Part shown: positions 25,492-57,903 of the stretch, piece after piece
Position numbering within the stretch: position 1 is the first letter of the stretch
Layout of the letters: each line of letters opens with the position of its first letter
Notes under the pieces: model-generated
The model's input: the letters and a program-made list of their open reading frames with translations, nothing else
Database searches by the model: none
What the model was told of the DNA's origin: nothing
NCBI GenBank assembly: GCA_964488935.1
Contig: CAZAVF010000001.1
Coordinates: forward strand, 753 to 64,752
DNA length: 64,000 nucleotides
Direction of reading: 5' to 3'
Source of the DNA: an uncultured Planctomycetales bacterium
Lineage (GTDB): Bacteria > Omnitrophota > Gorgyraeia > Gygaellales > Profunditerraquicolaceae
Program-made: the position numbers and the translations under genes

Positions 25492-26277
25492 TTACAGAAC
25501 GGCTATCGCTTTGACCGGACACACCTCTACGCACTCCATACACGAAGTGCATTTAGCGTAATCTATGACCGCCAGGTTATTCTCGACCTTTATCGCCCCG
25601 TATTTGCACGTTTTCTCGCAGCGCCTGCAGGCAATGCAGGCGGTCTTGCAGTATCCCCGCTTGACCGCGGCGGTATCGGAAGAACGGCATGCCACGTAAA
25701 CCTTCTGTTCTTCCGTCCGGAGGGAAAACAGGTGCTTGGGGCAGGCGCTGACGCACTTTCCGCAGGCGCGGCATTTATCTTTATCGACGTGCGGGAGCCC
25801 GTCTTTCCCCAGATGGATGGCGTTAAAGGGACAGACCTTCGCGCATGTTCCCAGCCCTATGCAGCCCCAGGCGCATTTCTTCGGCCCCCCGAGAAGGGCG
25901 GCAGCGGCCCGGCAATCCTTTAAACCGGAGTAAATGTATCTCTCCTCCACGCCTGCGCCGCCGCGGCAATGCAGCACCGCGGTCCTTCTGGAGGATTTAT
26001 CAAGCTTCTTGCCCAGTATGGCCGCAATCTCGTTCTTTACCGTTTCGTCGCCGGCCCGGCAGGCGTCCGGGGAAAGCTCCCCTTTGAGGACCGCTTCGGC
26101 AAACCCGAAGCAGCCCGCGGCGCCGCAGGCCCCGCAATTGGCCCCGGGCAGCAGTCCCATTATCTTCTCCAGGCGCAGGTCGGTGTGCACGGCCAGCTTG
26201 CGCGAGGCGAAAGCCAGCCCGGCCCCGAACAGCACGCCGAGCTCACCCAATATCAATACCGCAGTCAATATGGCCAT
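25492..26277 (-). CDS. rnfB: Rnf complex subunit B (Fe-S, polyferredoxin)
   Basis: N-terminal TM, CxxCxxxC cluster, two 4Fe-4S ferredoxin domains. Confidence 0.85.
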   Translation of the reverse strand: MAILTAVLILGELGVLFGAGLAFASRKLAVHTDLRLEKIMGLLPGANCGACGAAGCFGFAEAVLKGELSPDACRAGDETVKNEIAAILGKKLDKSSRRTAVLHCRGGAGVEERYIYSGLKDCRAAAALLGGPKKCAWGCIGLGTCAKVCPFNAIHLGKDGLPHVDKDKCRACGKCVSACPKHLFSLRTEEQKVYVACRSSDTAAVKRGYCKTACIACRRCEKTCKYGAIKVENNLAVIDYAKCTSCMECVEVCPVKAIAVL

Positions 26278-26295
26278 ATGGATATTCCCTCCGGG

Positions 26296-26904
26296 TCAGA
26301 ACCTGAACCCGTTGAACCCCATGAACGAAAGGCTCATCAGCGAAGCGGTGACAAAAGCGATGGGGAATTCCCTGACCGCTTCCGGCACGCGTGAATATTC
26401 CAGCCTTTCCCTTATGGCGGACATCAAAAGCATGGCCAGAGTATAGCCTATGCCCACGCAGATCCCCTGAAAAACCGAGAATATGAAGCTCCCCGGCAAA
26501 GGTCTGCCCTTGCTGAAGAACATGTCCGTATTGAGCACCGCGACCCCGAGCACTGCGCAGTTGACCGTGATCAACGGCAGGTAGATGCCGAACACGCGGT
26601 AAAGCGCCGGCATGAACTTGCGGACAACCATTTCTACCAGCTGGACGCAGGAAGCTATGACCAGGATAAAAGAAATGGTGCGCAGATAAGCGAGGTTGAA
26701 TGGTATCAAAAGGTAATTATATATCGCCCAGGTTATGGCTGAGGACATGACGATCACGAAAAACACCGCCGAGCTCATGGCCAGGGCCGGGCGGGTCTCC
26801 TTGGAAATGGCGATGAACGAACACAACCCCAGGAAACGCGAAAGGATGACGTTGGAAACGAAGATGCTGGAAATAAAGATCGCCAGGAAATGTCCCGCGT
26901 TCAT
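26296..26904 (-). CDS. rnfA: Rnf complex subunit A
   Basis: FLGLCSF, YLRTISFILVIA, LPLITVNCAVLGVA (near-identical to RsxA core). Confidence 0.85.
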   Translation of the reverse strand: MNAGHFLAIFISSIFVSNVILSRFLGLCSFIAISKETRPALAMSSAVFFVIVMSSAITWAIYNYLLIPFNLAYLRTISFILVIASCVQLVEMVVRKFMPALYRVFGIYLPLITVNCAVLGVAVLNTDMFFSKGRPLPGSFIFSVFQGICVGIGYTLAMLLMSAIRERLEYSRVPEAVREFPIAFVTASLMSLSFMGFNGFRF

Positions 26905-27491
26905 CCCTTCCTCCCCTTCAGCAGATTAAAGAACCCCAGCATCCCCCCTATGACCAAAAGCGCCCCCGGGGGCAGGGCCATCATCAGCGCCGGCTGAAAA
27001 CCGGGAAGCACTGTATATCCCAGCAGTTGTCCGGAACCGAGCAGTTCCCTGACCGCGGAAATAAGCGCCAGCCCCAGGGTGAACCCGGCGCCCATCCCCA
27101 GAGCGTCCGCCAACGAAGCGGAGAGCGTCCGGCGGGAGGCGAAGGCCTCGGCGCGGCCGAGCACCATGCAGTTGACCACGATCAACGGGACATATATACC
27201 CAGGGACTTGTTCAACGCCGGGCTGTAGGCCTTCATCACCAGTTCGGCGATGGTCACGAAAGTGGCGATAATGATGATGAAACACGGTATGCGTATCTTG
27301 TCCGGCACCGCTTTCTTTATCAACGATACGATACAATTCGAGCCGACAAGCACGAAAGTGGCGGCGGCTCCCATGCCCAGCGCGTTGCTTACCGAAGTGG
27401 AGACCGCCAGCACCGGGCAGAGCCCGAGCGCCAGCACGAAAATGGGATTCTGTTTTATTATACCTTTAAGGAACTCGGATAATAATTTCAT
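26901..27491 (-). CDS. rnfE: Rnf complex subunit E
   Basis: LALGLCPVLAVS, LIVVNCMVLGRAEAFA. Track ORF has a 135-codon spurious 5' extension. Confidence 0.85.
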   Translation of the reverse strand: MKLLSEFLKGIIKQNPIFVLALGLCPVLAVSTSVSNALGMGAAATFVLVGSNCIVSLIKKAVPDKIRIPCFIIIIATFVTIAELVMKAYSPALNKSLGIYVPLIVVNCMVLGRAEAFASRRTLSASLADALGMGAGFTLGLALISAVRELLGSGQLLGYTVLPGFQPALMMALPPGALLVIGGMLGFFNLLKGRKG

Positions 27492-28435
27492 CTTGCCTTT
27501 CCCGTGCCGTAAATACGCCCGCGGGTATACCTGTCGATGAAAGGGGCAACGGCGTTCATTATCAGGATGGCGTAACACGTCCCTTCGGGATAGCCGCCCC
27601 ACAGCCTGATCACCACGGTCAACAGGCCGCATCCGGCCCCATAGATCAACTGCCCTTTGGCGGTCAAAGGAGAGGTCACGTAATCCGTCGCCATGTAAAA
27701 GGCGCCCAGCACCAGCCCGCCGGAAAGCAGGTAAAACAGCCAGTCCCCGCTGAACAGTCCGGAAGGTCCGAAAACATAATGCAAGATCCCGGCGGTCAAC
27801 AGATAAGACACCGGGATATGCCAGGTTATATATCCTTTGAGAAAAAGAAAGACCGCGCCGGCCAGCAGCCCCGCTATGCAGACCTCCCCTATACATCCGG
27901 CCTTGTTGCCCAGGAAAAGATCCAGGTAAGGATAAACCTGCTGGAGATGCCCCTCTTTCAGCGCGGACAACGGGGTCGCCGAAGCGACGGCATCGAAACC
28001 CGGGGCGCGGAAAGAGGTCATGTAAGCCGGCCAGGAGGCCATGAGGAACGCCCTTGCCGCGAGGGCAGGATTGAATATGTTCTGTCCCAGCCCGCCGAAG
28101 ATATGTTTCCCCACGGCGATGGCGAAAAAAGAGCCGACCGCCGGGATCCAGAGCGGGACTCCGGCGGGCAGGTTATACGCCAGGAGCAGACCGGTAAGGA
28201 AGGCGCTGCCGTCGGACAATGTGACCTGCCTGCGCGTCATTTTCTGCAGCAGCCATTCTGAAACGAGCGCTGCCGCGACGGCCGTGACGATAACGGCGAG
28301 GGCCGCATAACCGAAGAAATAGACGCCGGCCGCCCCCGCTGGAAGCAACGCCAGGCTGACGCTCCACATTATGCGCGCCGTGGACTCGCGCGCATGCAGA
28401 TGCGGCGCCGCGGCGACTATAAGCTTATTTCCCAT
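27488..28435 (-). CDS. rnfD: Rnf complex subunit D
   Basis: AAPHLH start, GGLGQNIFNPALAARAF, TDYVTSP, DRYTRGRIYG match RnfD/NqrB. Confidence 0.85.
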   Translation of the reverse strand: MGNKLIVAAAPHLHARESTARIMWSVSLALLPAGAAGVYFFGYAALAVIVTAVAAALVSEWLLQKMTRRQVTLSDGSAFLTGLLLAYNLPAGVPLWIPAVGSFFAIAVGKHIFGGLGQNIFNPALAARAFLMASWPAYMTSFRAPGFDAVASATPLSALKEGHLQQVYPYLDLFLGNKAGCIGEVCIAGLLAGAVFLFLKGYITWHIPVSYLLTAGILHYVFGPSGLFSGDWLFYLLSGGLVLGAFYMATDYVTSPLTAKGQLIYGAGCGLLTVVIRLWGGYPEGTCYAILIMNAVAPFIDRYTRGRIYGTGKAR

Positions 28436-28949
28436 TACGCAAGGCCTCCCTTACTTCGGCCGCTTTCAGGTCCACGGACGATATTACCGCCCGCGAAGAG
28501 ATCGTCGCCCCGGTTATCGCCTGCACCCCGGAGACCCGGGCCGCCTCCACGCCGCTGAACCTGCCGGTGAAAGATACTTCCGCCACTCTGCTTCCCAATC
28601 CGGGGGTCTCGTTCTGGTTGAGGATCTTTATCGCTTTTATCTTCGCCCCGGCGTCCATGCAGACCATGGTATCTATCATACCGGAATACCCCTTACCGGC
28701 GGCTTTGAACAAAACGCCCAGCAACCTGCCGCTTTTATCATAAGCCTTGTAAAAGAGGACCTCGTCGCCTTTACGTACCGGCGTGAAAGCCGCGGCCTCC
28801 GGCTGCAGCTCTTTCAACGCCGCTTCTTCCTCCAGGCCCGCCTGTGCCGCTATACGCGGGGCGGTGACGGCATTGACCGCCGCAAGAAGACCACCTGCCG
28901 ATAATGCTATGAGGCCCAAAATGAACGCGAACCTGAATATATCCCTCAT
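28425..28949 (-). CDS. rnfG: Rnf complex subunit G (FMN-binding)
   Basis: SGMIDTMV, ETPGLG, ITGATISS FMN-bind motifs. Start re-set (track ORF has 63 extra codons). GGAGG RBS. Confidence 0.85.
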   Translation of the reverse strand: MRDIFRFAFILGLIALSAGGLLAAVNAVTAPRIAAQAGLEEEAALKELQPEAAAFTPVRKGDEVLFYKAYDKSGRLLGVLFKAAGKGYSGMIDTMVCMDAGAKIKAIKILNQNETPGLGSRVAEVSFTGRFSGVEAARVSGVQAITGATISSRAVISSVDLKAAEVREALRNGK

Positions 28950-30217
28950 CTGGCGGCCTCCGCTTTGGCTCTCTTTATATACTGAACCAGCCGGCGGTTG
29001 GCCGGACACACATAAGTGCACGCTCCGCATTCCACGCAATCGGCCAGCCCTTGCCGTTTCGCTTCCTCGAACAATCCCCTCTCGGCAGCCGCCCCCAGCA
29101 TACAGGGAAGCAGTCCGGTGGAACATACGCGCACGCACCTGCCGCAGCGTATGCAGGCGCTCTCTTCCAGGATACGGCTGCTCTTCTTCCCCAGCACCAG
29201 CACGCCGCTGGTGGTTTTTGTTACAGGGACGTCCGTCCCGGCCTGGGTGATACCCATCATCGGCCCCCCGATGATTATTTTACCGGGTTCTTCCTTAAGC
29301 GGCCCGCATGAAGCGATCAATTCCGATACCGGGGTACCGGTCCGGACCAGCAGGTTTGCGGGATTCGACAGGCAATCGCCGGTGACTGTGACCACCCGTT
29401 CGTAAAGAGGTTTCCCCAGATAAACGGCCTCGTAGGCGGCGAAAACGGTGACCACGTTCTGCACTACGGCCCCTGCCTCGAACGGCAGCTTGCCGCGGGG
29501 GACTTCCCTGCCCAGAACGCTCCTGATCAGTTGTTTTTCCCCGCCCTGGGGATAAAAAGACTTTAATTCCTTCACCCTCAGCGGTTTTGAGACCCTGCCG
29601 AGGAACAGTTCTATCGCCCTTGGTTTATTGTCCTCTAACGCTATGCAGATGTCCTCGACTCCCAGTATGCGGCCGAGCAGCAGCGCCCCTTTGATGATCT
29701 CGTCGCTTTTCTCCAGCATCAGCCGGTAGTCTGAAGTGAGATATGGCTCGCATTCCGCCCCGTTGACGATCAGCGTTTGTACCCGGACCGGCGGTTTAAG
29801 TTTGAGAAAAGACGGGAACCCCGCTCCTCCCATCCCCACAAGACCGGCATCGCGTATTATATCGAGGAGCTCTGCCTGCGGCAAAGAATCCACAACGCCC
29901 GCCTCGCGCGCCCGGAAAGCGAAAGAATCGGGCAGCTGCGTCTCTATCACCGCTGCGCCGCACCTGCCGAGCACGGGATGCGCGCAGGTTTCCAGCGAAG
30001 ATACCGTTCCGGTCACGGAAGAATGGACGGCCGCCGACGGCATGGCCCCGGCGGAAGCTATCCGCTGCCCGGTAAGGACTTTATCTCCCGGCTTGACCTC
30101 CGGCAGGCAAAGCTTGCCCAGATGCTGGCAGAACGGGATGAATACCTTGCCCGGGGGAGGCAGAACGGTTATCTTCTTATCCTCGGTAGCTTCTTTGCGG
30201 TGCTCTAATTTAACCAT
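28946..30217 (-). CDS. rnfC: Rnf complex subunit C (NADH-binding, 2x4Fe-4S)
   Basis: GMGGAGFPSFLKL, NGAECEPYLTSD, CIRCGRCVRVC and CGACTYVCP. Start re-set to MVKLEH (track ORF has about 223 spurious N-terminal codons). Confidence 0.85.
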   Translation of the reverse strand: MVKLEHRKEATEDKKITVLPPPGKVFIPFCQHLGKLCLPEVKPGDKVLTGQRIASAGAMPSAAVHSSVTGTVSSLETCAHPVLGRCGAAVIETQLPDSFAFRAREAGVVDSLPQAELLDIIRDAGLVGMGGAGFPSFLKLKPPVRVQTLIVNGAECEPYLTSDYRLMLEKSDEIIKGALLLGRILGVEDICIALEDNKPRAIELFLGRVSKPLRVKELKSFYPQGGEKQLIRSVLGREVPRGKLPFEAGAVVQNVVTVFAAYEAVYLGKPLYERVVTVTGDCLSNPANLLVRTGTPVSELIASCGPLKEEPGKIIIGGPMMGITQAGTDVPVTKTTSGVLVLGKKSSRILEESACIRCGRCVRVCSTGLLPCMLGAAAERGLFEEAKRQGLADCVECGACTYVCPANRRLVQYIKRAKAEAAR

Positions 30218-31467
30218 GCGCTCATTCTCTTGTAGAAGATATTCGCCAGCCCGGTCAGCGCGAACAGGCAGCCGATCACGGAAATAATGAATATTTCCGG
30301 GAGCCTTTCCGCTATCTTGCTGCTTAAAAGCATGAAGGTAAGGAACCCCGCGTGCATTATTATTTCCATCGCGCTGAAGACCTTGCCGCGCATCTGGCTG
30401 TCGCTGACCCTGTGTATTATGGTGTTGGAGGCGATCATGATGGGGGAAACGCTCAACCCCAGAAGTAACGCCAGACCGGCAGCCACGTTGAAAAGAGGAT
30501 ACCTCTGCAGCATGAAGGCGAAAATTATCAGTATGATCCCGGCCGAGGCAAGGGAAATGAAGATCACCCTGTAATGCGATATCCTGGACCCGAAACGCCC
30601 GTAGACCACCGAACCGAGAAAAAGCCCGGCGCCGAGGAAAACGATGAGCAGACCGAGATCTTTGGTGGCGGAATGCAGGGTTTTCTGCACGAAAACTATC
30701 ATCACCACGTAGAGGGCCCCCAGGGCCGCGGAAAGCGAGAAAATAAGCCCCACCGTGAAACGTATGTGCTTGTTCTTCAGGACGTATTGCCAGCTCTCCT
30801 TCAGTTCCTGCAGCACCGTCTTCTTGAATATCTCCTCCATATCCCTGACCGGATGGGAAACCGCATGTTCCCGTATTCTCCTGCATGCCCCGGTGTAAAT
30901 AAAGAAGATCAGGCCTGCGGAAAAGGCGAAACTAAGCGAATCCAGGAAAAAACCGCTCTTGGGCCCGATCCATTCCACCAGCAGCCCGCTTATGCCGAAC
31001 CCGGCTACCGCAGCGATCATTCCGGTCATATTGGCCAGGGTGTTGGCCATCAACAGATGCTTCTTCTCCACGAGCTCCGGCAGTATCGCCATCTTGGCCG
31101 GGACAAAGAACCTGCCGATGCTGAAAATAACGAATATGACCGTATACAAAGGAAGGAAGTTGCTGGTATGAAAAAAGAAAAGCGGTATGCTCAACACGAG
31201 AGCCGCGCGCAGGAAATCGCAGACATACATGGTGCGGCGTTTGTCCCAGCGGTCCACGTAGACCCCGGCCACCGGACCCACGACAAAGACCGGGAGGATG
31301 GTAAAGGACATTATCTTGGCGATCTGCATCGGGGAACCAGGGGCTTTAAGATAGATAAGCCCCAGTAAAGCCATCTGGTCGAGCCTGTCCCCCAGTTGGG
31401 AAACGATCTGGCCGAGCCAGAGCAGGAAGAAATTACGGTTCTTCAATACCTGGACGTATTCAGACAT
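30205..31467 (-). CDS. MFS transporter (12 TM, DHA3/EntS-like efflux family)
   Basis: 12 predicted TM; MFS motif region GDRLDQ..., G-x-x-x-DRWDKRR. Confidence 0.8.
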   Translation of the reverse strand: MSEYVQVLKNRNFFLLWLGQIVSQLGDRLDQMALLGLIYLKAPGSPMQIAKIMSFTILPVFVVGPVAGVYVDRWDKRRTMYVCDFLRAALVLSIPLFFFHTSNFLPLYTVIFVIFSIGRFFVPAKMAILPELVEKKHLLMANTLANMTGMIAAVAGFGISGLLVEWIGPKSGFFLDSLSFAFSAGLIFFIYTGACRRIREHAVSHPVRDMEEIFKKTVLQELKESWQYVLKNKHIRFTVGLIFSLSAALGALYVVMIVFVQKTLHSATKDLGLLIVFLGAGLFLGSVVYGRFGSRISHYRVIFISLASAGIILIIFAFMLQRYPLFNVAAGLALLLGLSVSPIMIASNTIIHRVSDSQMRGKVFSAMEIIMHAGFLTFMLLSSKIAERLPEIFIISVIGCLFALTGLANIFYKRMSAWLN

Positions 31468-35795: not shown

Positions 35796-36815
35796 TCAAT
35801 CCAATACCTTTCTTATTATTCCCCCCCCGACTACCGTATCTCCTCTGTAAATCACCGCCGATTGTCCTGGAGTAACCGCGAATTGGGGAAGACGGAAAAC
35901 AATTTTCAGTGTGTTGCCGGATGGCGTTATTTCGGCTGGCTGTTCCGTATGATTATAACGTATCTTCACGTTCAGGACAATCTTCTTTTTCAACGGCGCG
36001 CGCGTAAAACTCAGCCTGTCTACGATGAAAGCCGACGCCGGGATCTCCTGCCTGCCAGCCAGCACCACCCTGTTGCGCCGCGCGTCCAATTTCTTGACGT
36101 ATAAAGGCCGGCCGGCAGAGATGCCCAGTCCCTGTCTTTGGCCGACGGTATAGAACGGCACTCCCTTATGACGGCCGAGGACCCTGCCTGCCGTATCCAC
36201 GAATTCCCCGGGGACGCAGCTGAACCCCGGGACGGAGAGAAGGAAAGAGCGGTAATCGCCGTCCGGGACAAAACACACATCCTGGCTCTCCTTGCCGGCC
36301 GGAACGCTCAGCCCGGCGGCGGAGACAAGACGGCGTACTGCCTCTTTGGTGTGGCCGCCGAGCGGGAAAAGCGTGTTCTTGAGCGCGGCCGGGGTAAGAC
36401 GGTAAAGAAAATAACTCTGGTCTTTCCCGGGGTCGGCCGCTTTTTTCAGGCGGCCGTTATCTATTTTAGCGTAATGCCCGGTGGCGAAATAATCCGCTCC
36501 CAGCGACAGCGCCAGGGTCCTCAGCAATCCGAACTTTATATAAAGGTTGCATCGCACGCAGGGATTGGGGGTGCGGCCTCCGGCGTATTCCGCCAGGAAA
36601 TCATCGATGACCCGGCGTCTGAACTCTTTTTCCAGACGGAATACCCGGTGTTCAATGCCGGCCTCTTCCGCCGCGCGCCTTGCCGCGCAGGCATCTTCAT
36701 GCCCGGATAAAAGAGCGGTAACTCCGATTACCCGGAAGCCGCGCGATTTGAGTAATAAAGCCGCCGCCGCGGAATCCACCCCTCCGCTTAAAGCGATTGC
36801 CGCCGTTTTCGACAT
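35796..36815 (-). CDS. mnmA: tRNA-specific 2-thiouridylase
   Basis: LSGGVDSA PP-loop, NPCVRCN, DQSYFL motifs. Confidence 0.9.
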   Translation of the reverse strand: MSKTAAIALSGGVDSAAAALLLKSRGFRVIGVTALLSGHEDACAARRAAEEAGIEHRVFRLEKEFRRRVIDDFLAEYAGGRTPNPCVRCNLYIKFGLLRTLALSLGADYFATGHYAKIDNGRLKKAADPGKDQSYFLYRLTPAALKNTLFPLGGHTKEAVRRLVSAAGLSVPAGKESQDVCFVPDGDYRSFLLSVPGFSCVPGEFVDTAGRVLGRHKGVPFYTVGQRQGLGISAGRPLYVKKLDARRNRVVLAGRQEIPASAFIVDRLSFTRAPLKKKIVLNVKIRYNHTEQPAEITPSGNTLKIVFRLPQFAVTPGQSAVIYRGDTVVGGGIIRKVLD

Positions 36816-39067: not shown

Positions 39068-40276
39068 TCACTCTTTCTTGTAAAGCCTCTCGTTGAGCGG
39101 CTTCACCTTGTAGCCGCTCTCGGCCCCCGGCAGCGCCGCCGAAGGCTCGGTAAGGAAAAACTCGCCTTTTTCTATCCTGGTCTTCAGCAGCAGGGCGATC
39201 TTGCGCGCGCGCGCGTAGCTGGAAAGGCTGCCGGTGGGGACGGTCTTGCCGCGCACTTTGATGTTCCCCGAGCGCAATTCGGCGTAACTGACCTCCGCGA
39301 TGACGCGGGACGTCCTTTGCGGATAATCGCGTCCATAGTCCACGACCGGAGCGTATATCTCGGCATCGGTCACAGCAGCCCGCCCGGCCACCTCCTCGTC
39401 GAGGACGGGGATGGGCACGCCTATGCCGACGGAAAGCGTGGCCCCGTAACCGGCCATGCTCGTGCCTATCAGCCATTCCGGGCTCATCTGTTTCAGGTCG
39501 CCGATGACCGCAAGCGTACCGCCTCCGCCAAGAGGGACCCCGTTCCTGCCGCGTTCGGCGCAGGGATTATGCTGCGTCCCGTGCCAGGCTATGTAGCCGG
39601 TCCCGCCCCCGAGGAAAATACGGGTGCCTATGCCTATGGTACGGTAATAAGGGTCTTTCAGCAGAGGAGAAAGCTGCCCGGCGGAAGAATAATTGGCGTT
39701 GCCGAGCCGCGGCTTGAGCATACCCATATAAGTGAACACGGTCTTGCCTGAGAGATTGACCGCCACGTTATAATTCTGATAACAGTTGCGCATGTTGAAA
39801 AGGACCGCCTCATTGAGGTCCTTGATGTTCAGCAGCGTCTCCAGTTTTTTCCGGGGGTAGCAGTCGGTTCCGTAAGCGCTGCATTCCAGTTTGACGTCTT
39901 TGCCGGCCGCCAGTTCCTGGATCACGTGCCCGCCGCCGTATTTGAATTCCCCGGGGAAGACCTTGTTGCGCGGGTCGTCGTCCGGCACGGCGGTGGCCCC
40001 GAGGAAAACGTCCACGGCGCCGAAAGCGGCATAGACCGGCACGTCGTTGACCGTGCAGCTGCCGCCTCCCAGCTTGATCCTCGGCTTGGAGTGACCGATA
40101 TTGAAATAAACCCCGCTGGAACACATGGGACCGAAAGTGGCGGTGGTGACCACGTCCACTTCCCTGGCGGCCTTCCTGGCGCCTTTTTTCGCCACCAGGT
40201 CTATGATCTCCTCGGCGGTGACCACCACGGCCTCTCCCCTGCCGATCTTACCGTTGATCTCCTTGATAGTCTTCAT
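39068..40276 (-). CDS. COG1900/DUF39 homocysteine-biosynthesis (sulfide-incorporating) enzyme
   Basis: DUF39 core conserved along length. Start re-set to MKTIKEING with GAGGGGAA RBS (track ORF has 38 extra codons). Confidence 0.7.
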   Translation of the reverse strand: MKTIKEINGKIGRGEAVVVTAEEIIDLVAKKGARKAAREVDVVTTATFGPMCSSGVYFNIGHSKPRIKLGGGSCTVNDVPVYAAFGAVDVFLGATAVPDDDPRNKVFPGEFKYGGGHVIQELAAGKDVKLECSAYGTDCYPRKKLETLLNIKDLNEAVLFNMRNCYQNYNVAVNLSGKTVFTYMGMLKPRLGNANYSSAGQLSPLLKDPYYRTIGIGTRIFLGGGTGYIAWHGTQHNPCAERGRNGVPLGGGGTLAVIGDLKQMSPEWLIGTSMAGYGATLSVGIGVPIPVLDEEVAGRAAVTDAEIYAPVVDYGRDYPQRTSRVIAEVSYAELRSGNIKVRGKTVPTGSLSSYARARKIALLLKTRIEKGEFFLTEPSAALPGAESGYKVKPLNERLYKKE

Positions 40277-40296
40277 TTCCCCTCGCTTTGGCCCGT

Positions 40297-40518
40297 TTAA
40301 ACCGAGACCACTTCTTTCACTTCCGGCACTTCCTGTTTCAGGATGCGTTCTATGCCCATTTTCAGGGTGAACTGGCTCATTGCGCAGCATCCGCAGCTGC
40401 CGGTAAGTCTTACCTTCACCACGCCGTCTTCGCCGACCTCCACCAGCTCCACGCTTCCGCCGTCGGCCGCCAGCATGGGCCTGATCTTCTCCAGCACAGC
40501 CTCAACCTTTTCTCTCAT
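40297..40518 (-). CDS. NifU-like Fe-S cluster scaffold domain protein
   Basis: NifU C-terminal domain with CGCC / CxxC pair (LTGSCGCCAMS). Confidence 0.7.
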   Translation of the reverse strand: MREKVEAVLEKIRPMLAADGGSVELVEVGEDGVVKVRLTGSCGCCAMSQFTLKMGIERILKQEVPEVKEVVSV

Positions 40519-40594
40519 CTAATCCTCCCGTATGCCTGACCCGTTTATGTGCGGCTCTATTTTGAACGGTCCGGTCCCGGTCTGCGAAGACGCC

Positions 40595-41494
40595 TCAGGA
40601 CAAATATCTCTCCCCCGTATCCGGGAGGACCGTAACCACCGTTTTTCCCCTGCCGAGCTTTTCGGCCGCTCTCAGGGCGGCCCAGACCGCGGCCCCCGCG
40701 GAGATGCCGGCGAAGATACCTTCGCGCGCCGACAATTCAAGACGGCATGACAAGGCTGCCTCGTCGGTGACCGTGATTATACCGTCTATCAATGAAACAT
40801 CCAACACGGGCGGGATGAACCCCGCGCCTATACCCTGTATTTTATGCGCTCCCGGCTTTCCCCCGGAAAGCACCGGGCTGGCCGCAGGCTCGACCGCGAT
40901 AACCTTAACGCGTGGATTCTCCGCCTTCAAAGCCGCGCCTACGCCTGTCAACGTCCCTCCGGTGCCGACCCCGCAGACAAAAGCGTCGATCCCGCCTGCG
41001 GTATCGCGCAGGATCTCCACGGCGGTGGTCCTGCGATGGGCCTCGGGATTGGCCGGATTACTGAACTGCCTTATGGAATAACTCTTCTTCAAGGAACGGC
41101 CTATTTCCTCCGCCTTATCTATCGCCGCGCGCATGCCGCCTGAAGCCGGCGTAAACACGACTTCCGCCCCGTAACTGTCCAGTATTTCGCGGCGCTGGCG
41201 GCTCATATTCTCCGGCATGACTATAAGACATTTGTATCCGCGTAAAGCGGAAAGCATTGCAAGTCCTATGCCGGTATTGCCGCTGGTGGGCTCGATGATC
41301 GTATAACCGGGCTTGAGCAGACCGCGGCGTTCCGCCTCATTGACTATATTAAGACAAATACGGTCTTTGATGCTGCCGCCGGGATTGCCCCCCTCTATCT
41401 TCACGAAGACGTCGGCGCCGCTCCGCGCGGGCAGAGCGTTCAATTTTACCAGCGGGGTATTGCCTATTAAACAAGAAACGTCCCTAGTGAACAT
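40595..41494 (-). CDS. cysK: Cysteine synthase (O-acetylserine sulfhydrylase)
   Basis: PLP-lysine region SIKDR, TSGNTG, GVGTGGT motifs. Confidence 0.9.
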   Translation of the reverse strand: MFTRDVSCLIGNTPLVKLNALPARSGADVFVKIEGGNPGGSIKDRICLNIVNEAERRGLLKPGYTIIEPTSGNTGIGLAMLSALRGYKCLIVMPENMSRQRREILDSYGAEVVFTPASGGMRAAIDKAEEIGRSLKKSYSIRQFSNPANPEAHRRTTAVEILRDTAGGIDAFVCGVGTGGTLTGVGAALKAENPRVKVIAVEPAASPVLSGGKPGAHKIQGIGAGFIPPVLDVSLIDGIITVTDEAALSCRLELSAREGIFAGISAGAAVWAALRAAEKLGRGKTVVTVLPDTGERYLS

Positions 41495-41516
41495 GGCGTA
41501 TTTTTATGGCGGAGCT

Positions 41517-41960
41517 TCATATCTGATAAACCATCTGCGCTTTATTCTTGCGGTTGAGATTTTCCAGCAGGTCGGCGAAGGTCACGCCGTCGACTATGCG
41601 CAGGGTGGCGCCGGAGACCCTCTGCCAGACGTCCCTGAAAACGCATTTATAGAGATCCCGGCACCCTTTATATCCGTCCTCCACGCAGGCGATCGGTTCC
41701 ACCGGAGAAGCGATGAAACGCACCACCTGGCCCAGGGATATCTCCCCAGGAGTCCTGGCAAGAAGATAACCGCCTACTTTACCCCGGCGGCTTTCGACAA
41801 AACCGCCTTTTTTCAGTTCCAGCAGCACCTGTTCAAGGAACTTGATCGGTATGTCCAGCCTGCCGGCCATATGCTGTATGCTTACCGGTTTATCCCCGTA
41901 ATGGATCGCCAGGTCAAGTATGGCTTTAAGCGCGTAATCGCCTTTGTATGTTATTCTCAT
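41517..41960 (-). CDS. Rrf2 family transcriptional regulator (CymR/IscR-like)
   Basis: Rrf2 wHTH (YALKAILDLA...), 22 nt upstream of cysK. Confidence 0.8.
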   Translation of the reverse strand: MRITYKGDYALKAILDLAIHYGDKPVSIQHMAGRLDIPIKFLEQVLLELKKGGFVESRRGKVGGYLLARTPGEISLGQVVRFIASPVEPIACVEDGYKGCRDLYKCVFRDVWQRVSGATLRIVDGVTFADLLENLNRKNKAQMVYQI

Positions 41961-48854: not shown

Positions 48855-49958
48855 TTACAGCCCGGCTTTCAGCGTGCTGTTCTCCAGTTCTTCTATCTCC
48901 GCTTTGAGTTTGTCCGGCAGCCCCAGGACCCCGACATCCATGAATCCCCGTACGATCAGGGACTGGGCTTCCTGCGGGGAGAAACCGCGGCAGCGCAGAT
49001 ATTCTATCTCGTCCTTGTTTATCCTGCCTATGGCGGCTTCATGGGAGAGGTCCACGTCGCGGTATTCGGTCTCCATCTCCGGGATCGCGTAAATACTCCC
49101 TTGCTCGGGCAATATCAGCCCGCGGCATTCCAGGTGCCCCTTCACGTCGCCGGCTGCGGCCTTGATATGCCCGCGGGCCACCACTTTCCCGCCCAGGCTG
49201 ACCGCCCTGGAGATGATCTCGGCCTGTGTCCGTTCCGCCTGCAGGACGACGCGGGAGCCTATGTCCTGCAGGGAACCGGGATGCGAAAGTATTATGGAAT
49301 TGAAACTGGCCCGCGCCTTTCTGCCGTGTAAAAGCGCCGTGGGATACATGGTGATGTCGCGCACCGGTCTCAGGCAGACGTAATTGGATATGAACGCGGC
49401 TTCTTCCCCGACGGAAGCTATGCTTACCGGCTTCACGCTGACGCTTTCCTGCCAGGAATGGATCATGGTGAAATTCAAATATGCCCCGTTATGCACGAAG
49501 AATTCGGATATGCCCAGATGCACGCTTTCGGAGGCGGAATGAGAAGCCGAGCATCCGGTTATTATGTAGGCCCTCGCCCCCTCTTCCACTACGATCAGGT
49601 TATGCACCTTCTGTTCAAAGCCGCGCTGTTTCAGGAAAAGGCAGGCCTGCACGGGGAATTCTATCGTATGGCCGCGCTTGACCCTGATGAAATACCCGCC
49701 CTCGGTCTCTTTGTCGAAGTCCCGGCCCGCGGAACGGAAATTGGCGCCGAAATACCCGGCGGCCGCCGGGTCTCTTTTCAGGGCCTCCCTTATCTCCATT
49801 ATCTCCAGTCCGTCCGAGAACGACCGGGAGAACATGAGCCCGGAGTCCTGCTGCAGAAAACTTCCCGAGCGGTCCTTCTCGGAGAAATCCATCCCCGAGG
49901 AGACAATGGTATCGCGATCGCGATCCTCCAGATTATCTTGCCGATTGCGCTCTGTCAT
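48855..49958 (-). CDS. Fe-S cluster assembly protein SufB/SufD family
   Basis: C-terminal SufBD beta-helix region. N-terminal 22 codons overlap sufC and may not be real (alternative ATG at about 49892). Confidence 0.7.
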   Translation of the reverse strand: MTERNRQDNLEDRDRDTIVSSGMDFSEKDRSGSFLQQDSGLMFSRSFSDGLEIMEIREALKRDPAAAGYFGANFRSAGRDFDKETEGGYFIRVKRGHTIEFPVQACLFLKQRGFEQKVHNLIVVEEGARAYIITGCSASHSASESVHLGISEFFVHNGAYLNFTMIHSWQESVSVKPVSIASVGEEAAFISNYVCLRPVRDITMYPTALLHGRKARASFNSIILSHPGSLQDIGSRVVLQAERTQAEIISRAVSLGGKVVARGHIKAAAGDVKGHLECRGLILPEQGSIYAIPEMETEYRDVDLSHEAAIGRINKDEIEYLRCRGFSPQEAQSLIVRGFMDVGVLGLPDKLKAEIEELENSTLKAGL

Positions 49959-50661
49959 CGCACCCTATGCATTTGTCGTAACCGCGTTCCCTTATGTTCT
50001 CGAATATCTCCTTCGGCCTGCCCACGCACCACATCTTCCCGTCTATCATCACGCAGCCTTTCCTGGCGTTTATATAATCCAGGATATACCCGGTGTGTGT
50101 TATGATCAGCGCGGACTTCCCTTCTTCCTTGAGATACTCATCAAGCACCCTGCCCATCACCGAGATGTTCTCCAGGTCCACTCCCGACTCCGGTTCGTCG
50201 AGGAGGAGCATATCGGGATCCTGCAGTATCAACTGGAAAAGCTCCGAGCGTTTCATTTCGCCGCCGGAGAACCCGATATTTATGTCCCTGGATAAATGCT
50301 GGGAAAGGGAAAGCTTACCGGACATGTTCTTTATAAGCCCCCCGTCCCCGTTGAGACGGCCGGCGATCTGGGAGAGCTTGACGCCCCTGACCTGCGGAGG
50401 ATGCTGATACATAAGCCCCAGGCCGAGCTTTACCCTCTCCTCCATGGGAAGGCCGTCTATCCTGGTCCCCTTCAGCATGATCTCTCCGGAGGTGACTTTG
50501 TAGCCTTCAAACCCCATTATAGCCTTCAGCAGCGTGCTCTTGCCGCTCCCGTTCGGGCCGAACAGAACCACTACTTCCCCTTTGCGTATATGCATGTTCA
50601 CGCCCTGAAGAATGCGGTGACCGGATATTTCCACGCTTATGTCTTTGACCTCAAGCATCAT
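49933..50661 (-). CDS. sufC: Fe-S cluster assembly ATPase SufC
   Basis: Walker A GPNGSGKST, signature FSGGEMKR, Walker B LLLDEPESG. Confidence 0.85.
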   Translation of the reverse strand: MMLEVKDISVEISGHRILQGVNMHIRKGEVVVLFGPNGSGKSTLLKAIMGFEGYKVTSGEIMLKGTRIDGLPMEERVKLGLGLMYQHPPQVRGVKLSQIAGRLNGDGGLIKNMSGKLSLSQHLSRDINIGFSGGEMKRSELFQLILQDPDMLLLDEPESGVDLENISVMGRVLDEYLKEEGKSALIITHTGYILDYINARKGCVMIDGKMWCVGRPKEIFENIRERGYDKCIGCDDRAQSAR

Positions 50662-53546: not shown

Positions 53547-54560
53547 TCAGCAGAATATGCCGGGGACCTTCTCCCCGCAAAAACGGCATTTTCCGCTATC
53601 GATCCCGCAATTCCTTACGCTGAATATCCCCCTTGTCACCAGAAGTTCCCGGCACTTATGACAATGCGTGTCCCCGCCCCAGCCTGAGACGTTGCCGGCG
53701 TAAACGTATGAAAGCCCGGCCCGCTTTCCCGCCTCCACCGCCCTCCTCACAAGAGGCTCCGGGGTGGACTGAAAAGCGTTGAATTTATAATCCGGGTGGA
53801 AACGCGAAATGTGCCAGGGTGTATGCCTGTCCAGGGAAACGATGAATCCCGCCAGACCTTCGAGTTCCTCTTCCGAGTCGTTCAACCCGGGTATCAGCAG
53901 CGTGGTGAGCTCAACCCAGATGCCGAGCTTTTTCATCAGGCGCACCGATTCCAGGACCGGCTCCAGAGACGCCCCGCAGTACTCGCGGTATGAATCCTCC
54001 CTGAAGAATTTTATGTCCACGTTGGCCGCGTCCAGCCATGGGGCGGCTGTCTCCAGCGCTCTGCCGGTCATATAACCGTTGGTGACGAAAACGTTCTTCA
54101 ACCCTTTTTCACGCGCCGCTTTGCAGGTATCTAACGCGTATTCCATGAATACCGTGGGTTCGGTATAAGTATAGGAAACACCGGCGCAGCCGTTCTCCAG
54201 CGCCGACTCCACAATCTTCTCCGGAGGGATTTCCTCCTCCCTGGCTGATCCGTCGTAAACGGAAACATCCTGCGATATCTGCCAGTTCTGGCAGAACCCG
54301 CACCTGAAATTGCAGCCGGGAAAGGCGATCGACATGCTCAATGAACCCGGGAGAAAATGATAAAGCGGTTTCTTCTCCACCGGGTCGACGTTCCCGCAGA
54401 CGGGATTGCCGTAGGCGTGCGTCATCAGAATCCCGTCCCTGTTGAAACGGACGCCGCAAACGCCGCTGCCGCCCGGCCCGATACGGCAGGAATGACGGCA
54501 AAGCAGGCAATGCACCGCGCCGCCGTCCAGTTTATCGTATAATATCGCCTCTTTATCCAT
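53547..54560 (-). CDS. Radical SAM enzyme of the AmmeMemoRadiSam (AmrS) / PFL-activase-like family
   Basis: CNFRCGFCQNW radical-SAM CxxxCxxC with the CQNW signature, plus N-terminal Cys-rich HCLLCRHSC...GVCGV. Confidence 0.65.
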   Translation of the reverse strand: MDKEAILYDKLDGGAVHCLLCRHSCRIGPGGSGVCGVRFNRDGILMTHAYGNPVCGNVDPVEKKPLYHFLPGSLSMSIAFPGCNFRCGFCQNWQISQDVSVYDGSAREEEIPPEKIVESALENGCAGVSYTYTEPTVFMEYALDTCKAAREKGLKNVFVTNGYMTGRALETAAPWLDAANVDIKFFREDSYREYCGASLEPVLESVRLMKKLGIWVELTTLLIPGLNDSEEELEGLAGFIVSLDRHTPWHISRFHPDYKFNAFQSTPEPLVRRAVEAGKRAGLSYVYAGNVSGWGGDTHCHKCRELLVTRGIFSVRNCGIDSGKCRFCGEKVPGIFC

Positions 54561-54575
54561 ATCCGGCGGCTGCCT

Positions 54576-55292
54576 TCAGCGTATAAGCGCCACCTCGTCT
54601 ATATACAGGACCACCTCTATATCCCCCGTCTTCAGGTCGACCGGCTGGTCTGTGACAAGACCTGTCACCTCGAACTGGTAGGATTTCACCCCGTTGTCGA
54701 CCCGGCTCAGGGATGTCTTATCGTCCCCGGTCCCGGTCCACTTTACGCTTTTCCAGTCGCGCTGATAGTCGTAGCGCGTGGTCAACTCCTTGAAATAGAC
54801 CCTTTCATCCAGCCATTCACCGGTATGCACTATCCTGGAGGCGCGAAGGATCTCTCCGTCCCCGTCTATGATATCGGTGGCGATCCTGACCAGCACCGGT
54901 TTCTGTCCCGTTCCTTTGACGGGTTCGACGAATACTTTATATGAGATACCGGATATCCCGCTCCAGTCCAGACCGGCCGGACGGTTCTCCCATTCGCATT
55001 TCTTATCGATGAGACCCTGCCCGCAGGCCAGGAAATTATAGCTGCCCGGGATCAGTTTGAGCGTCAATTTAAGCGACCGGCCGAACGGCGCCGCGCTTTT
55101 GGCCGAGCTTTCCACCGCGAGATTGAAGTCCCTGCTTCCGTACTCCACTTTCTTCACAGCATCCCCGGAATCGAACCTGCTGACCACTATCCGGTGCTGA
55201 TCCGCCGGACGCAGCAGCATGCCGGCTACAAAAACCGCCGCTAAAGCCGCCGGGACCGCCAAGAAAACAGCCGTTCTTTTCGCCTTGATCAT
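54576..55292 (-). CDS. Exported/membrane-anchored hypothetical protein
   Basis: N-terminal hydrophobic anchor, no recognisable domain. Tightly packed between radical SAM and PP-loop genes. Confidence 0.4.
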   Translation of the reverse strand: MIKAKRTAVFLAVPAALAAVFVAGMLLRPADQHRIVVSRFDSGDAVKKVEYGSRDFNLAVESSAKSAAPFGRSLKLTLKLIPGSYNFLACGQGLIDKKCEWENRPAGLDWSGISGISYKVFVEPVKGTGQKPVLVRIATDIIDGDGEILRASRIVHTGEWLDERVYFKELTTRYDYQRDWKSVKWTGTGDDKTSLSRVDNGVKSYQFEVTGLVTDQPVDLKTGDIEVVLYIDEVALIR

Positions 55293-55301
55293 CTCTCCTC
55301 C

Positions 55302-56369
55302 TTAACGATGTTGGTGCCCTATGCGTAACGCATCCAGGGCCTTTTCGTCCGCGGGCATACAATACGAAATTTCTTCCGCGCCTCCCTGCACCCTGCAGGA
55401 TATTCTTACTCCTTCGCCGGGAGCGGGCCGGCAGTAATAAGCCAGCAGGGAACCTGACAATGATATGAGTCCGGGGTCGAATTCCCCCCTGCCCAGGGCA
55501 ACAGGACCTGCCTCATCTAACGTATAGAACAACCGGTCGCCCGGCGCGGCACAGGACTCCAGTTCCCCGTTCTCCTTTTCGTCTCTTCCCACTATGAGCC
55601 TTGTCTTTTCGGAAAGTCTGAAATGCCTGCCGATCTTGAGCAGTTCAAGTTCCGGGAGCTTAACCCCCTCATGACAACAAAGGTCGCGCAGCCGTCCGGA
55701 AAAGATCGGGTCCGTGAGCAGACACCCGCCGGCGGCATTCACGGGTTCCTTTATGCCCATAGACTCCGCCAGGCGTAATTGCGCCCGGCGGGACCGTCCG
55801 CTAATACTCAGCAGTTTGGCGCGCTCCACCCATCCTTCTCTTTCAGGGATGGTCACCGGCAGTATGCGGCCGGACAGAGGTCTCAGGATCAGCCCGGGGA
55901 TGCCGCTTTCCCGGTCGGCGATCTCAAGTGTCTGTCTGCGCTGCGACATGCCGCGCTGCCCGACCACTTCTCCGGTCACTACGAAATCGGCGCCCTCCCT
56001 CCGCATGAAATCGGCGCCCTTCTTCAACATCAATATACGGCAGTCCAGGCATGGATTCATGTTGGAGCCGAAACCGTGTTCCGGAGATCTCAGGATGGCG
56101 ACGGCTTCATCGGAGACGCTGATCTCCGCGACAGGGGCTCCCGACCATTCCTCCAGACAGGAAACAAGTCTCTTCCTCGTTCCGGTTTTATCGCGCTCGC
56201 GCGGCAGATAAGGCAGCACGATCTTGAGCGGCAGGATCTTTATCCCCTGGTCGATCATCAGCCTGGCGGCAAGTATGCTGTCCAGCCCGCCTGAAATAAG
56301 CGCCACGGCTTTTATCTGTTCTTTAACGGACATTTCTCCAGCTTTCTTTGCGGACTGAGTATTGGGCAA
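55302..56369 (-). CDS. ThiI-like PP-loop ATP pyrophosphatase lacking THUMP domain (putative sulfurtransferase)
   Basis: SGGLDS PP-loop at residue about 25, GEVVGQRGMSQ (ThiI GESLGQVASQ-like), GGCLLTDP (ThiI CCTLFxP-like), plus a unique roughly 100-aa C-terminal extension. Confidence 0.6.
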   Translation of the reverse strand: MPNTQSAKKAGEMSVKEQIKAVALISGGLDSILAARLMIDQGIKILPLKIVLPYLPRERDKTGTRKRLVSCLEEWSGAPVAEISVSDEAVAILRSPEHGFGSNMNPCLDCRILMLKKGADFMRREGADFVVTGEVVGQRGMSQRRQTLEIADRESGIPGLILRPLSGRILPVTIPEREGWVERAKLLSISGRSRRAQLRLAESMGIKEPVNAAGGCLLTDPIFSGRLRDLCCHEGVKLPELELLKIGRHFRLSEKTRLIVGRDEKENGELESCAAPGDRLFYTLDEAGPVALGRGEFDPGLISLSGSLLAYYCRPAPGEGVRISCRVQGGAEEISYCMPADEKALDALRIGHQHR

Positions 56370-56386
56370 CGTGAACGCCGGGACGG

Positions 56387-57745
56387 TTATCCCTTAAGGC
56401 GGACGGCCGGCAGGTTTTTCAAAGAACGCCTGATCTCCGCGGCCGGATGAGAAAAATTCTTCAACTCTCCGCCGAGGAACTTATCGTAGGACGCAAGGTC
56501 GAGGAAACCGTGGCCGCTGAAGTTGAAAAGGATGCATGCGCCCTTCGGCGCCGCTCTTGCCGCGTCGACGGCGGCCTTCACGGCGTGCGCGGTCTCCGGG
56601 GCCGGGATTATGCCTTCGGTCCTGGCAAAAACCAGAGCGGCCTTGAAAACTTCCAGCTGCGGATAAGACCGGGCCTCGGCTATCTTCTTCCTGCAAAGCA
56701 GGCTTACGAGAGGGGAACACCCGTGATATCTCAGCCCGCCGGCGTGTATTGAAGGAGGCATGAATTTATGGCCCAGCGTGAACATCTTCAGCAGGGGAGT
56801 GAGAGAAGCGGTATCCCCGAAATCGTATTCATACAGCCCCCTGGTAAGAGTGGGACAGGCTGACGGCTCGACGGCTATTATGCGCATCTCCGGGCGCCTG
56901 CGCAGTTTGTCGGTCACGAACGGAAAGGCCAGCCCTCCGAAGTTGCTGCCGCCGCCCACGCATCCGATCACGAAATCAGGCTTCTCCCCGAGGATCTTAA
57001 GCTGCGCCTTGGCCTCCTGTCCGATCACGGTCTGATGCAGAAGCACGTGGTTCAACACGCTGCCGAGGGCGTAATTGGTATCCTTTCTGCCGGCTGCGTC
57101 CTCCACCGCTTCGGAAATGGCCGTCCCGAGACTCCCCTGGCACCCCGGGTCCTCCTTCAGCATGGCCCGCCCGCAGACCGTCGTATCGGAAGGGGAGGCG
57201 ACGACGTCCGCGCCCCAGATCTTCATCAATGAACGCCGGAAAGGTTTCTGGTTGTAACTCACCTTCACCATATAAACCATGCATTTCATGGAAAAGACGT
57301 TACAGGCAAAACTCAATGCCGCGCCCCACTGCCCGGCACCGGTCTCGGTGGTGAGGCGGCGTATCCCTTCTTTCTTGTTGAAATACGCCTGCGCTATGGA
57401 AGTATTGATCTTATGACTGCCGGTGGGGGAAACGCTTTCGTCTTTATAGTATATGCGGGCTTTTGTTCTCAGGTACTTTTCCAGCCGCAAGGCCCTCCTC
57501 AAAGGAGTGGGCCTCCAAAGCCGGTAGATATCCCTTACTGCGGCCGGGATGACGATCTCTTTCTGCCTGCTCATTTCCTGGCGGATCAACGAAAGAGGGA
57601 ATATCCTTTGCAGGTCCGCCGCCGACAAAGGCCGTCCGGTGGCGGGATTCAAGGCCGGAGGAGCGGGAAAAGGCAGATCGGCAAGCAGGTTATACCAGGC
57701 CGCCGGTATATGTTTTTCCGTCAGGATGACTTTACTCTCATCCAT
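56387..57745 (-). CDS. TrpB-like PLP-dependent enzyme (TrpB2 / trpB_rel family)
   Basis: [11 protein letters not shown]-lysine, [22 protein letters not shown] motifs. Confidence 0.75.
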
Positions 57746-57903
57746 AATACGCCTACCCCTGGCAGGGCTTTCTTCCTTTATTCGCCTTCTTGGAACGCCA
57801 GTTCAATTTACCTCTACGTTTTCTCTTTCCCATTTTTACCTTCCTTTCAACCTTGTTTTCACGGTCTTAAGAAACCGCCGTGCGATGTATTCCGCGTTGA
57901 CGA

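Follow-up and report, generated by a model that had tools for sequence, protein, structure and literature searches.

A conserved thiI(NFACT-R)-amrS gene pair within a probable compact operon of an uncultured Omnitrophota bacterium

The AmmeMemoRadiSam system, named for genes that occur together in a genome, comprises AMMECR1 (TIGR04335), Memo (TIGR04336), and a radical S-adenosylmethionine (SAM) enzyme (TIGR04337), hereafter AmrS. A second described family, a fusion of a ThiI-type PP-loop domain with DUF814, was reported in 2014 by Burroughs and Aravind, who predicted that it serves as an alternative tRNA 4-thiouridine synthase, found it nearly mutually exclusive with THUMP-containing ThiI, and named TusA as its sole conserved neighbor; archaeal NFACT genes, which carry the NFACT-R domain, were reported in the same work to adjoin AMMECR1 (PMC4075521). 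In a third family, the rhodanese-less archaeal U8-tRNA sulfurases TtuI (M. maripaludis, P. furiosus), the ligands of a [4Fe-4S] cluster are provided by a CXXC motif plus one further cysteine, and the thiamine role of E. coli ThiI was found to need the rhodanese domain alone (He et al. 2022, PMC9825150). Here, we describe a locus in a 64-kb stretch of DNA (hereafter “the window”; 64,000 nucleotides of contig CAZAVF010000001.1 from an uncultured bacterium) that joins members of the first two families. Positions 53547-57745 hold four co-oriented minus-strand open reading frames (ORFs): trpB2, a thiI-like gene that we refer to as thiI(NFACT-R), a gene for a 238-amino-acid (aa) exported protein, and amrS. 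On balance, we read this locus as a compact housekeeping operon in which a clade-specific, co-translated pair of Fe-S enzymes is accompanied by lineage-specific passengers, rather than as a four-enzyme pathway.

The evidence for a conserved pair came from a scan of species-representative genomes that was anchored on a ThiI(NFACT-R) alignment and yielded 80 loci (L006-L085), which were searched with the window proteins. AmrS lay directly downstream of ThiI(NFACT-R) in 16 of the 28 informative loci labelled Omnitrophota, a count that takes in L006, where the 238-aa gene separates the two. In the more distant Omnitrophota pair loci, ThiI was 43-49% and AmrS 50-60% identical. Look-ups from AmrS homologues returned the same thiI-amrS pair, as did the three best AmrS-anchored metagenome loci, and the distinct pair loci numbered 28 in total. 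The ThiI stop and the AmrS start overlapped by 4 nt (ATGA) in 16 of these 28 loci and were 0-30 nt apart in 5 more, while a gap of 765-795 nt was found only where the 238-aa gene is inserted. When the flanks of 25 pairs were clustered, five families stood immediately upstream of ThiI (annotated examples: a Zip transporter, an FeoB transporter, and TrpB2) and ten immediately downstream of AmrS (annotated examples: a phosphatase, DUF386, ThiM, Ldh, and a Ca-ATPase). Because the pair persists while its flanks change, the stable unit is thiI(NFACT-R) followed by amrS. These data support the notion that AmrS is co-transcribed with a THUMP-less ThiI-like gene and that this link is conserved well beyond close relatives. 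A preliminary description of the locus had grouped all four genes as an operon and had named neighborhood conservation as one check; the AmrS-ThiI part of the grouping is borne out, whereas TrpB2 and the exported protein stand at this position only in the window's own sublineage, the full set of four being confined to L002-L006 (ThiI at least 67% identical). We did not find the ThiI(NFACT-R)-AmrS association in the literature searched.

The reach of the pair is limited. The other 12 of the 28 informative Omnitrophota-labelled ThiI loci were without AmrS, and among the 32 informative loci under other labels (Desulfobacterota, Nitrospirota, Nitrososphaeria, and others), none had AmrS within 10 kb of ThiI. 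In two loci (L046, 2739-6403; L054, 10001-14080), the orthologous Ca-type P-type ATPase (63-66% identical) comes directly after ThiI(NFACT-R) without an intervening AmrS, which was therefore lost or moved from there. In a neighbor-joining tree, all ThiI-linked AmrS proteins, that of the window included, formed one clade, AMMECR1/Memo-linked or -fused AmrS formed another, and methyltransferase-linked AmrS fell mostly in a third. The link to ThiI therefore goes back, in essence, to a single evolutionary event and has been kept since.

The first member of the pair is, judging by its domains, very likely an RNA enzyme. Its start is most likely the ATG at 56333, preceded by a GGAG ribosome-binding site, and the resulting 343-aa product is identical to a database protein (P0001). 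It matches the Pfam ThiI model PF02568 (E = 1.9e-10), begins 13 residues ahead of the PP-loop, and has no match to a THUMP or rhodanese domain in Pfam or NCBIfam, in line with the preliminary description of a THUMP-less PP-loop enzyme with a ThiI core; the PP-loop motif is SGGLDS. It falls far short of the canonical ThiI model TIGR00342 (38.1 bits against a cutoff of 264.5, with only model positions 164-314 covered). The C-terminal extension, which had been called unique, is an NFACT-R_2 domain (PF18297; E = 8.4e-16, 58.4 bits against a cutoff of 26.9), and the same ThiI plus NFACT-R architecture occurs in at least 7988 database proteins; a profile match to the NFACT-R region of RqcH was weak (E = 0.31). 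An AlphaFold2 (AF2) model of the protein reached a mean confidence (pLDDT) of 86.8. In Foldseek searches with this model, the N-terminal domain returned MnmA, ThiI (4kr6, 2c5s), TtuA, and LarE-[4Fe-4S], and the C-terminal domain returned FBPS (5h3w, E = 1.3e-6) and the RqcH chains 8s1u_H and 7aqc_R, with E from 1.3e-6 to 4.6e-5 over the FBPS and RqcH matches. Neither ThiI(NFACT-R) nor AmrS had a solved structure that could be found by sequence search.

Conserved residues place the protein in the ThiI+DUF814 family. In 14 aligned sequences, the cysteines C95, C98, and C204, the motif G179-R180-x-R182-x-x-Q185, and the segments SGGLDS, NPCxDC, and GGCLLTDP were invariant. The CxxC motif corresponds to codons 95 and 98 (56040-56051) and the third cysteine, Cys204 in GGCLLTDP, to 55722-55724, as checked by translation; the NPCxDC segment aligned with NPCVMC of MnmA (9hln), and the GRxRxxQ family motif is present as SGRSRRAQ. 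With the described family, the protein thus shares a ThiI-type PP-loop without THUMP or rhodanese domains, a C-terminal NFACT-R/DUF814 domain, the CxxC plus internal cysteine, the GRxRxxQ motif, and an elaborated active-site loop. It differs in its neighbor: the one reported is TusA and here it is AmrS, an association not mentioned in PMC4075521, and no TusA was recorded among the called genes within ±10 kb (L002, L004) or ±8 kb (L086-L088). The catalytic domain also carries the CXXC + C cysteine triad of the [4Fe-4S]-dependent TtuI class, with which it has in common the PP-loop, the lack of a rhodanese domain and, by analogy, the proposed chemistry, in which ATP activates uridine and the cluster then hands over sulfide. 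It differs from TtuI in that the RNA-binding module is a C-terminal NFACT-R domain instead of an N-terminal NFLD/THUMP domain, and in the spacing between the CxxC motif and the third cysteine (106 residues here versus 80 in TtuI). The preliminary view that this protein is unlikely to act on tRNA runs against its NFACT-R RNA-binding domain and the family prediction as a tRNA 4-thiouridine synthase (PMC4075521). A ThiI without THUMP is not necessarily a non-RNA enzyme, and the analysis corrects what is likely an annotation trap.

The second member of the pair is, by its profile scores, a genuine TIGR04337 enzyme, as had been recognized from its CNFRCGFCQNW signature. It scored 324.6 bits against a cutoff of 220 and covered model positions 4-333 of 349. 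On the same model, ThiI-linked orthologues scored 336-351 bits and AMMECR1/Memo-linked proteins 337-353 bits; together with the methyltransferase-linked proteins, the range was 325-356 bits. Invariant cysteines, again checked by translation, form an N-terminal group (C18/C21/C25/C35), the CX3CX2C motif (C83/C87/C90), and a C-terminal CxxC...CxxC group (C300/C303/C325/C328). All of these motifs are also visible in an AMMECR1/Memo fusion protein (P0310), and the window AmrS shares 43-44% identity with the AmrS domains of the AMMECR1 and Memo fusions P0310 and P0361.

Alike as it is to the AmmeMemoRadiSam radical SAM component in score and cysteine motifs, the window AmrS differs in belonging to a separate clade and in having neither partner at hand. 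AMMECR1 (PF01871) and Memo (PF01875) were absent from the 64 kb in Pfam scans of essentially all sizeable ORFs and in tblastn searches with seeds from fusion proteins, which agrees with the preliminary description, and neither was found within 6-10 kb of the 28 thiI-amrS pairs. That this “orphan” state is exceptional did not hold up. AmrS proteins form a large family, with 1445 clusters (50% identity) at E < 1e-30, and among 62 informative AmrS-anchored metagenome loci, AMMECR1 and/or Memo was adjacent in 5, ThiI was nearby in 4, and neither was present in 53. AmrS without adjacent AMMECR1 or Memo is the usual state of the family.

Other AmrS genes have recurrent neighbors and fusions of their own. 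A class I SAM methyltransferase (Methyltransf_11) stands ~5 nt upstream of AmrS in eight loci (L105, L108, L113, L121, L127, L129, L130, L136), with seven of the eight AmrS proteins in one clade of the tree, and in three of these (L129, L130, L136) a DEAD-box helicase precedes the two genes. Archease follows AmrS in three loci (L097, L100, L142), and Usp is a recurrent neighbor in six. From 150 AmrS family representatives, we scanned 10 of the ~30 that exceed 500 aa; no ThiI-AmrS fusion was among these ten, which carried fusions to AMMECR1/Memo, DsbD_2, FMN_bind/Fer4_5, flavodoxin-FAD-NAD, an intein, and a CBM11-like domain. The electron-transfer and membrane types were found in P0280, P0291, P0304, P0314, P0351, P0359, and P0277, with flavodoxin-FAD-NAD (CPR-like), DsbD_2 membrane, and FMN_bind + Fer4_5 (NosR-like) partners; one protein of this set holds the intein, with a LAGLIDADG domain. 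These domain combinations suggest a dedicated reductant supply for the AmrS family.

The remaining two genes appear as additions of one lineage. The trpB2 product confirms the TrpB-like pyridoxal 5′-phosphate (PLP) enzyme that had been noted: it scored 693.7 bits on NF009057 (cutoff 366) and 627.8 bits on TIGR01415 (cutoff 518.85), whereas the TrpB1 model gave 159 bits. Its best solved relatives, all deposited as tryptophan synthase beta chain 1 or 2, were 6hul_B (458 bits), 4qys, and 6hte (405-458 bits), compared with at most 139 bits for TrpB1 chains; an exact-sequence look-up gave no match. Next to these TrpB2 enzymes (S. solfataricus 6hul, 4qys, 6hte), it is likewise full-length and high-scoring, with nothing unusual detected, and it differs in its position next to thiI, which is specific to the window's sublineage. 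No trpA or other trp gene was found in the window, and genes of the trpB2_o and trpB2_a types are typically located outside trp operons, as trpB2 is here (PMC1854888).

The 238-aa ORF, described before as an exported hypothetical protein, indeed has an N-terminal hydrophobic helix, is preceded by a strong AGGAGG ribosome-binding site, and has no match in Pfam (E ≤ 0.01; CBM_11 included) or NCBIfam. A search of 5.8 billion proteins returned only 22 homologues, all of Omnitrophota type. In its AF2 model (pLDDT 72), a helix at residues 5-26 is followed by a beta-sandwich, for which the best Foldseek match was CBM11 (1v0a; E = 8e-8, template-modeling (TM) score 0.63 when normalized to the target, 15% identity); on this model, the protein is CBM11-like in fold only and is not shown to be a family member. 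Three homologues, with 47%, 65%, and ~70% identity, have unrelated surroundings: the adjacent genes are BacA and a cation-efflux gene, or UDG. A separate observation concerns an AmrS representative from a different clade, the 681-aa protein P0389, in which AmrS is fused to a CBM_11-like domain (Pfam E = 2.3e-6) and, at the N terminus, to a hydrophobic anchor; this parallels the membrane-anchored CBM11-like gene directly upstream of amrS in the window. Homology between the 238-aa protein and the CBM11-like region of P0389 was considered and rejected (hhalign probability 0.4%, not significant). TrpB2 occurs upstream of ThiI, and the 238-aa gene at thiI-amrS, only in L002-L006, and both are missing from all 24 more distant pairs. 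Nothing ties either gene to sulfur chemistry, and they are lineage-specific additions.

What was established directly is the gene content, the family assignments, the domain architecture, the pattern of conservation, and the reading-frame overlap; the catalytic steps that follow are drawn from knowledge of the families. In the reading of the locus as a housekeeping operon with an Fe-S enzyme pair, the thiI(NFACT-R)-amrS dicistron would have arisen once, in one Omnitrophota clade, and would usually be translationally coupled through the ATGA overlap. The window's sublineage would then have gained two unrelated genes, trpB2 upstream and a gene for a CBM11-like envelope protein between the core genes. 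ThiI(NFACT-R) would use its NFACT-R domain to bind RNA, most probably tRNA, and would adenylate the C4 oxygen of uridine with ATP at the PP-loop. Sulfide would then take the place of this oxygen, delivered from the free iron of a [4Fe-4S] cluster whose ligands would be Cys95, Cys98, and Cys204. AmrS would cleave SAM at the cluster of its CX3CX2C motif for the reaction of its family, and may be co-expressed with ThiI only because both are oxygen-sensitive Fe-S enzymes. TrpB2 would condense indole with serine or phosphoserine to tryptophan. All genes of the locus belong to described families, and it is not a new system.

Several points weigh against this reading. The tight and long-lived thiI-amrS coupling through many flank rearrangements exceeds generic synteny, and a shared substrate could be conceived. 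The archaeal NFACT-AMMECR1 neighborhood (PMC4075521) points to a link between NFACT-R and AmmeMemoRadiSam. In a distant lineage (L118, 3422-5992), an M50 peptidase gene, AmrS, a phosphoribosyltransferase gene, and ThiI of the NFACT type follow one another on one strand, in the reverse order of the Omnitrophota pair and with a ThiI fragment 37% identical to the window ThiI. Finally, no experimental characterization of ThiI(NFACT-R) or AmrS was found in the literature searched.

The alternative that survives best, and that we advance only tentatively, is a functional partnership in which ThiI(NFACT-R) and AmrS act on a single RNA substrate, tRNA or rRNA. ThiI would add a thio group and AmrS would modify the same or a neighboring nucleoside afterwards, or prepare the site beforehand, so that the product would be a clade-specific hypermodified nucleoside and the AmrS family would be connected with RNA modification. 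This would account for a pair kept through at least 5 upstream and 10 downstream changes of neighbor and for the frequent 4-nt overlap, although gene overlaps are common in such compact genomes and all pairs, lying in one clade, amount to essentially one event. The loci that lack AmrS speak against a partnership of this kind, both the 12 in Omnitrophota (including L046 and L054, where the same Ca-ATPase comes directly after ThiI) and all 32 with other labels; moreover, most AmrS genes have no ThiI nearby, and both families are widespread on their own. The independent, reordered linkage in L118 would favor a partnership, but one such case is about what chance would yield (roughly 0.2 expected, a rough estimate). 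Further support comes from other AmrS clades, which adjoin RNA-flavored genes (the methyltransferase at -5 nt in 8 loci, the DEAD-box helicase in 3, archease in 3), and from the archaeal NFACT genes that neighbor AMMECR1. We consider doubtful the more specific claim that the conserved, translationally coupled pair shows RNA to be the substrate of AmrS, on which it would work jointly with the RNA thiolase or directly after it.

Three further observations touch on this question. In a Planctomycetota metagenome-assembled genome (L066, 10001-14032), ThiI(NFACT-R) is followed by a 154-aa ORF, a ThiF-family E1-like enzyme, and a zinc-ribbon protein, and then by a Memo-like gene on the opposite strand. 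We rejected this Memo gene, 2.2 kb from ThiI(NFACT-R), as evidence of a link, since it is compatible with chance (~1 such case expected over ~45 loci). An AmrS-like match 5 kb upstream of ThiI on an Omnitrophota chromosome (L050) was likewise set aside as uninformative, being a shortened ORF of 222 aa with no AMMECR1/Memo signal. As an analogy only, preQ0 synthesis also brings together a PP-loop ATPase, QueC, and a small radical SAM enzyme of the PFL-AE-like kind, QueE, and the two act consecutively within one pathway. QueC (3bl5) was among the fold matches to the ThiI model and the QueE model matches AmrS weakly, but these scores come nowhere near the family cutoffs, further queuosine genes are missing, and nothing points to a shared substrate.

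It is improbable, in our view, that the PP-loop enzyme and AmrS serve the sulfur chemistry of cofactors or small molecules instead of acting on RNA, for example thiamine/thiazole-related or LarE-like sulfur insertion. Thiamine genes do follow the pair in several loci: a ThiM-like hydroxyethylthiazole kinase and ThiE come directly after it in L089 (9034-10049) and L090 (7476-8494), and Thi4 lies two genes downstream in L087 (10673-11449), all by Pfam; the gene that follows amrS in L011 and L094 groups with the ThiM-like ORF of L089 by BLAST only. These genes may be a coincidence or a hint of a thiamine-related role, and the PP-loop domain resembles the small-molecule sulfurtransferase LarE-[4Fe-4S] (8cnz, TM 0.47-0.50 normalized to the target). 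Set against this, NFACT-R is present in all 14 aligned family members, the alignment of which extends over this domain, the rhodanese domain needed by E. coli ThiI for its thiamine role (PMC9825150) is absent here, and thiamine genes represent only one of the 10 downstream neighbor families.

Least probable is the proposal of the preliminary description that the four genes form a new small-molecule or peptide thio-modification pathway, which finds no comparative support: the genes are co-oriented and closely spaced without clear terminators and keep this arrangement in relatives down to 67% ThiI identity, but it is uninformative there because those relatives (ThiI 67-82% identical) share the whole 20 kb in synteny, and against it stand the absence of trpB2 and the 238-aa gene from the more distant pairs, the unrelated contexts of the 238-aa homologues, the lack of precursor peptide, transporter, or tailoring genes at the locus, and the RNA-binding domain of ThiI.

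The features of the locus are collected in Table 1. ThiI and the 238-aa gene are 9 nt apart and the 238-aa gene and AmrS 15 nt, in keeping with the close spacing of 10-18 nt described before; the TrpB2-ThiI gap is 53 nt, not 17, because ThiI most likely starts at the ATG at 56333, and it measures 82-126 nt in relatives. No convincing intergenic terminator was seen among the four genes. The cluster is flanked in the window by a Ca-type P-type ATPase gene downstream and by a CsgG-like gene and a HAD hydrolase gene upstream (Pfam). Base composition is even along the window, with no island at the cluster, and Rfam and tRNA scans gave no match near it. Database matches were labelled Candidatus Omnitrophota, and the closest named relative was Candidatus Undivivens industriae (L006).

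Table 1. Features of the thiI(NFACT-R)-amrS locus, in window coordinates.
Feature	Position	Strand	Length	Description
trpB2	56387..57745	-	452 aa	Stand-alone TrpB2-type tryptophan synthase beta-like PLP enzyme; NF009057 + TIGR01415
thiI(NFACT-R)	55302..56333	-	343 aa	PP-loop sulfurtransferase, ThiI+DUF814 family; predicted [4Fe-4S]-dependent RNA uridine sulfurase; Pfam ThiI + NFACT-R_2
PP-loop (ThiI-type) ATP-pyrophosphatase core, SGGLDS	55869..56318	-		PF02568; residues 18-167 of 355-aa ORF
NFACT-R_2 (DUF814-type) predicted RNA-binding domain, ThiI C terminus	55335..55631	-		PF18297
Exported/membrane-anchored protein, CBM11-like beta-sandwich (predicted)	54576..55292	-	238 aa	AGGAGG ribosome-binding site; AF2 model
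amrS	53547..54560	-	337 aa	AmmeMemoRadiSam-type radical SAM enzyme; TIGR04337; CX3CX2C at 54291-54314
Basic 26-codon ORF, directly upstream of trpB2	57753..57833	-		Ultra-conserved; context only, no functional tie claimed

Between the CsgG-like gene and trpB2 lies a basic ORF of 26 codons, preceded by the ribosome-binding site GGAAGG. Across 23 distinct Omnitrophota loci (for example, at 8472-8549 in L002 and 9152-9229 in L007), where the neighboring proteins are only 40-55% identical, its identity is 88-100%, and it is missing from the gene calls of the relatives' loci. Codon differences comprised 251 synonymous versus 44 nonsynonymous changes, and the ORF is therefore a real, strongly constrained gene. 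It had no Pfam, NCBIfam, or PDB match; the product presumably resembles tiny basic ribosomal proteins (bL37, bTHX), which we take as a lead only.

Elsewhere, the window holds a sulfur-assimilation cluster (39068-41960, minus strand) with an Rrf2 regulator, a CysK-like PLP enzyme, and a HcyBio-type (sulfide-dependent) homocysteine biosynthesis protein, as well as MnmA (35796-36815) and SufC/SufD-like genes (48855-50661). An operon for an Rnf-type ion-translocating ferredoxin:NAD oxidoreductase occupies 25492-30886 (minus strand), and its RnfC homologue of 646 aa has ~220 extra N-terminal residues without a Pfam match.

Overall, the thiI(NFACT-R)-amrS pair provides a modest, testable neighborhood lead on what AmrS proteins do. 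No biochemical function has been assigned to AmrS, AMMECR1, or Memo, all of which are widespread, and human homologues exist for the latter two. That AmrS is reproducibly linked to a predicted RNA-modifying enzyme narrows the search to nucleosides of tRNA or rRNA. If it were true that AmrS acts on RNA, the AmmeMemoRadiSam system as a whole would for the first time have a substrate hypothesis open to direct test, and this would fit the archaeal neighborhood of NFACT and AMMECR1.

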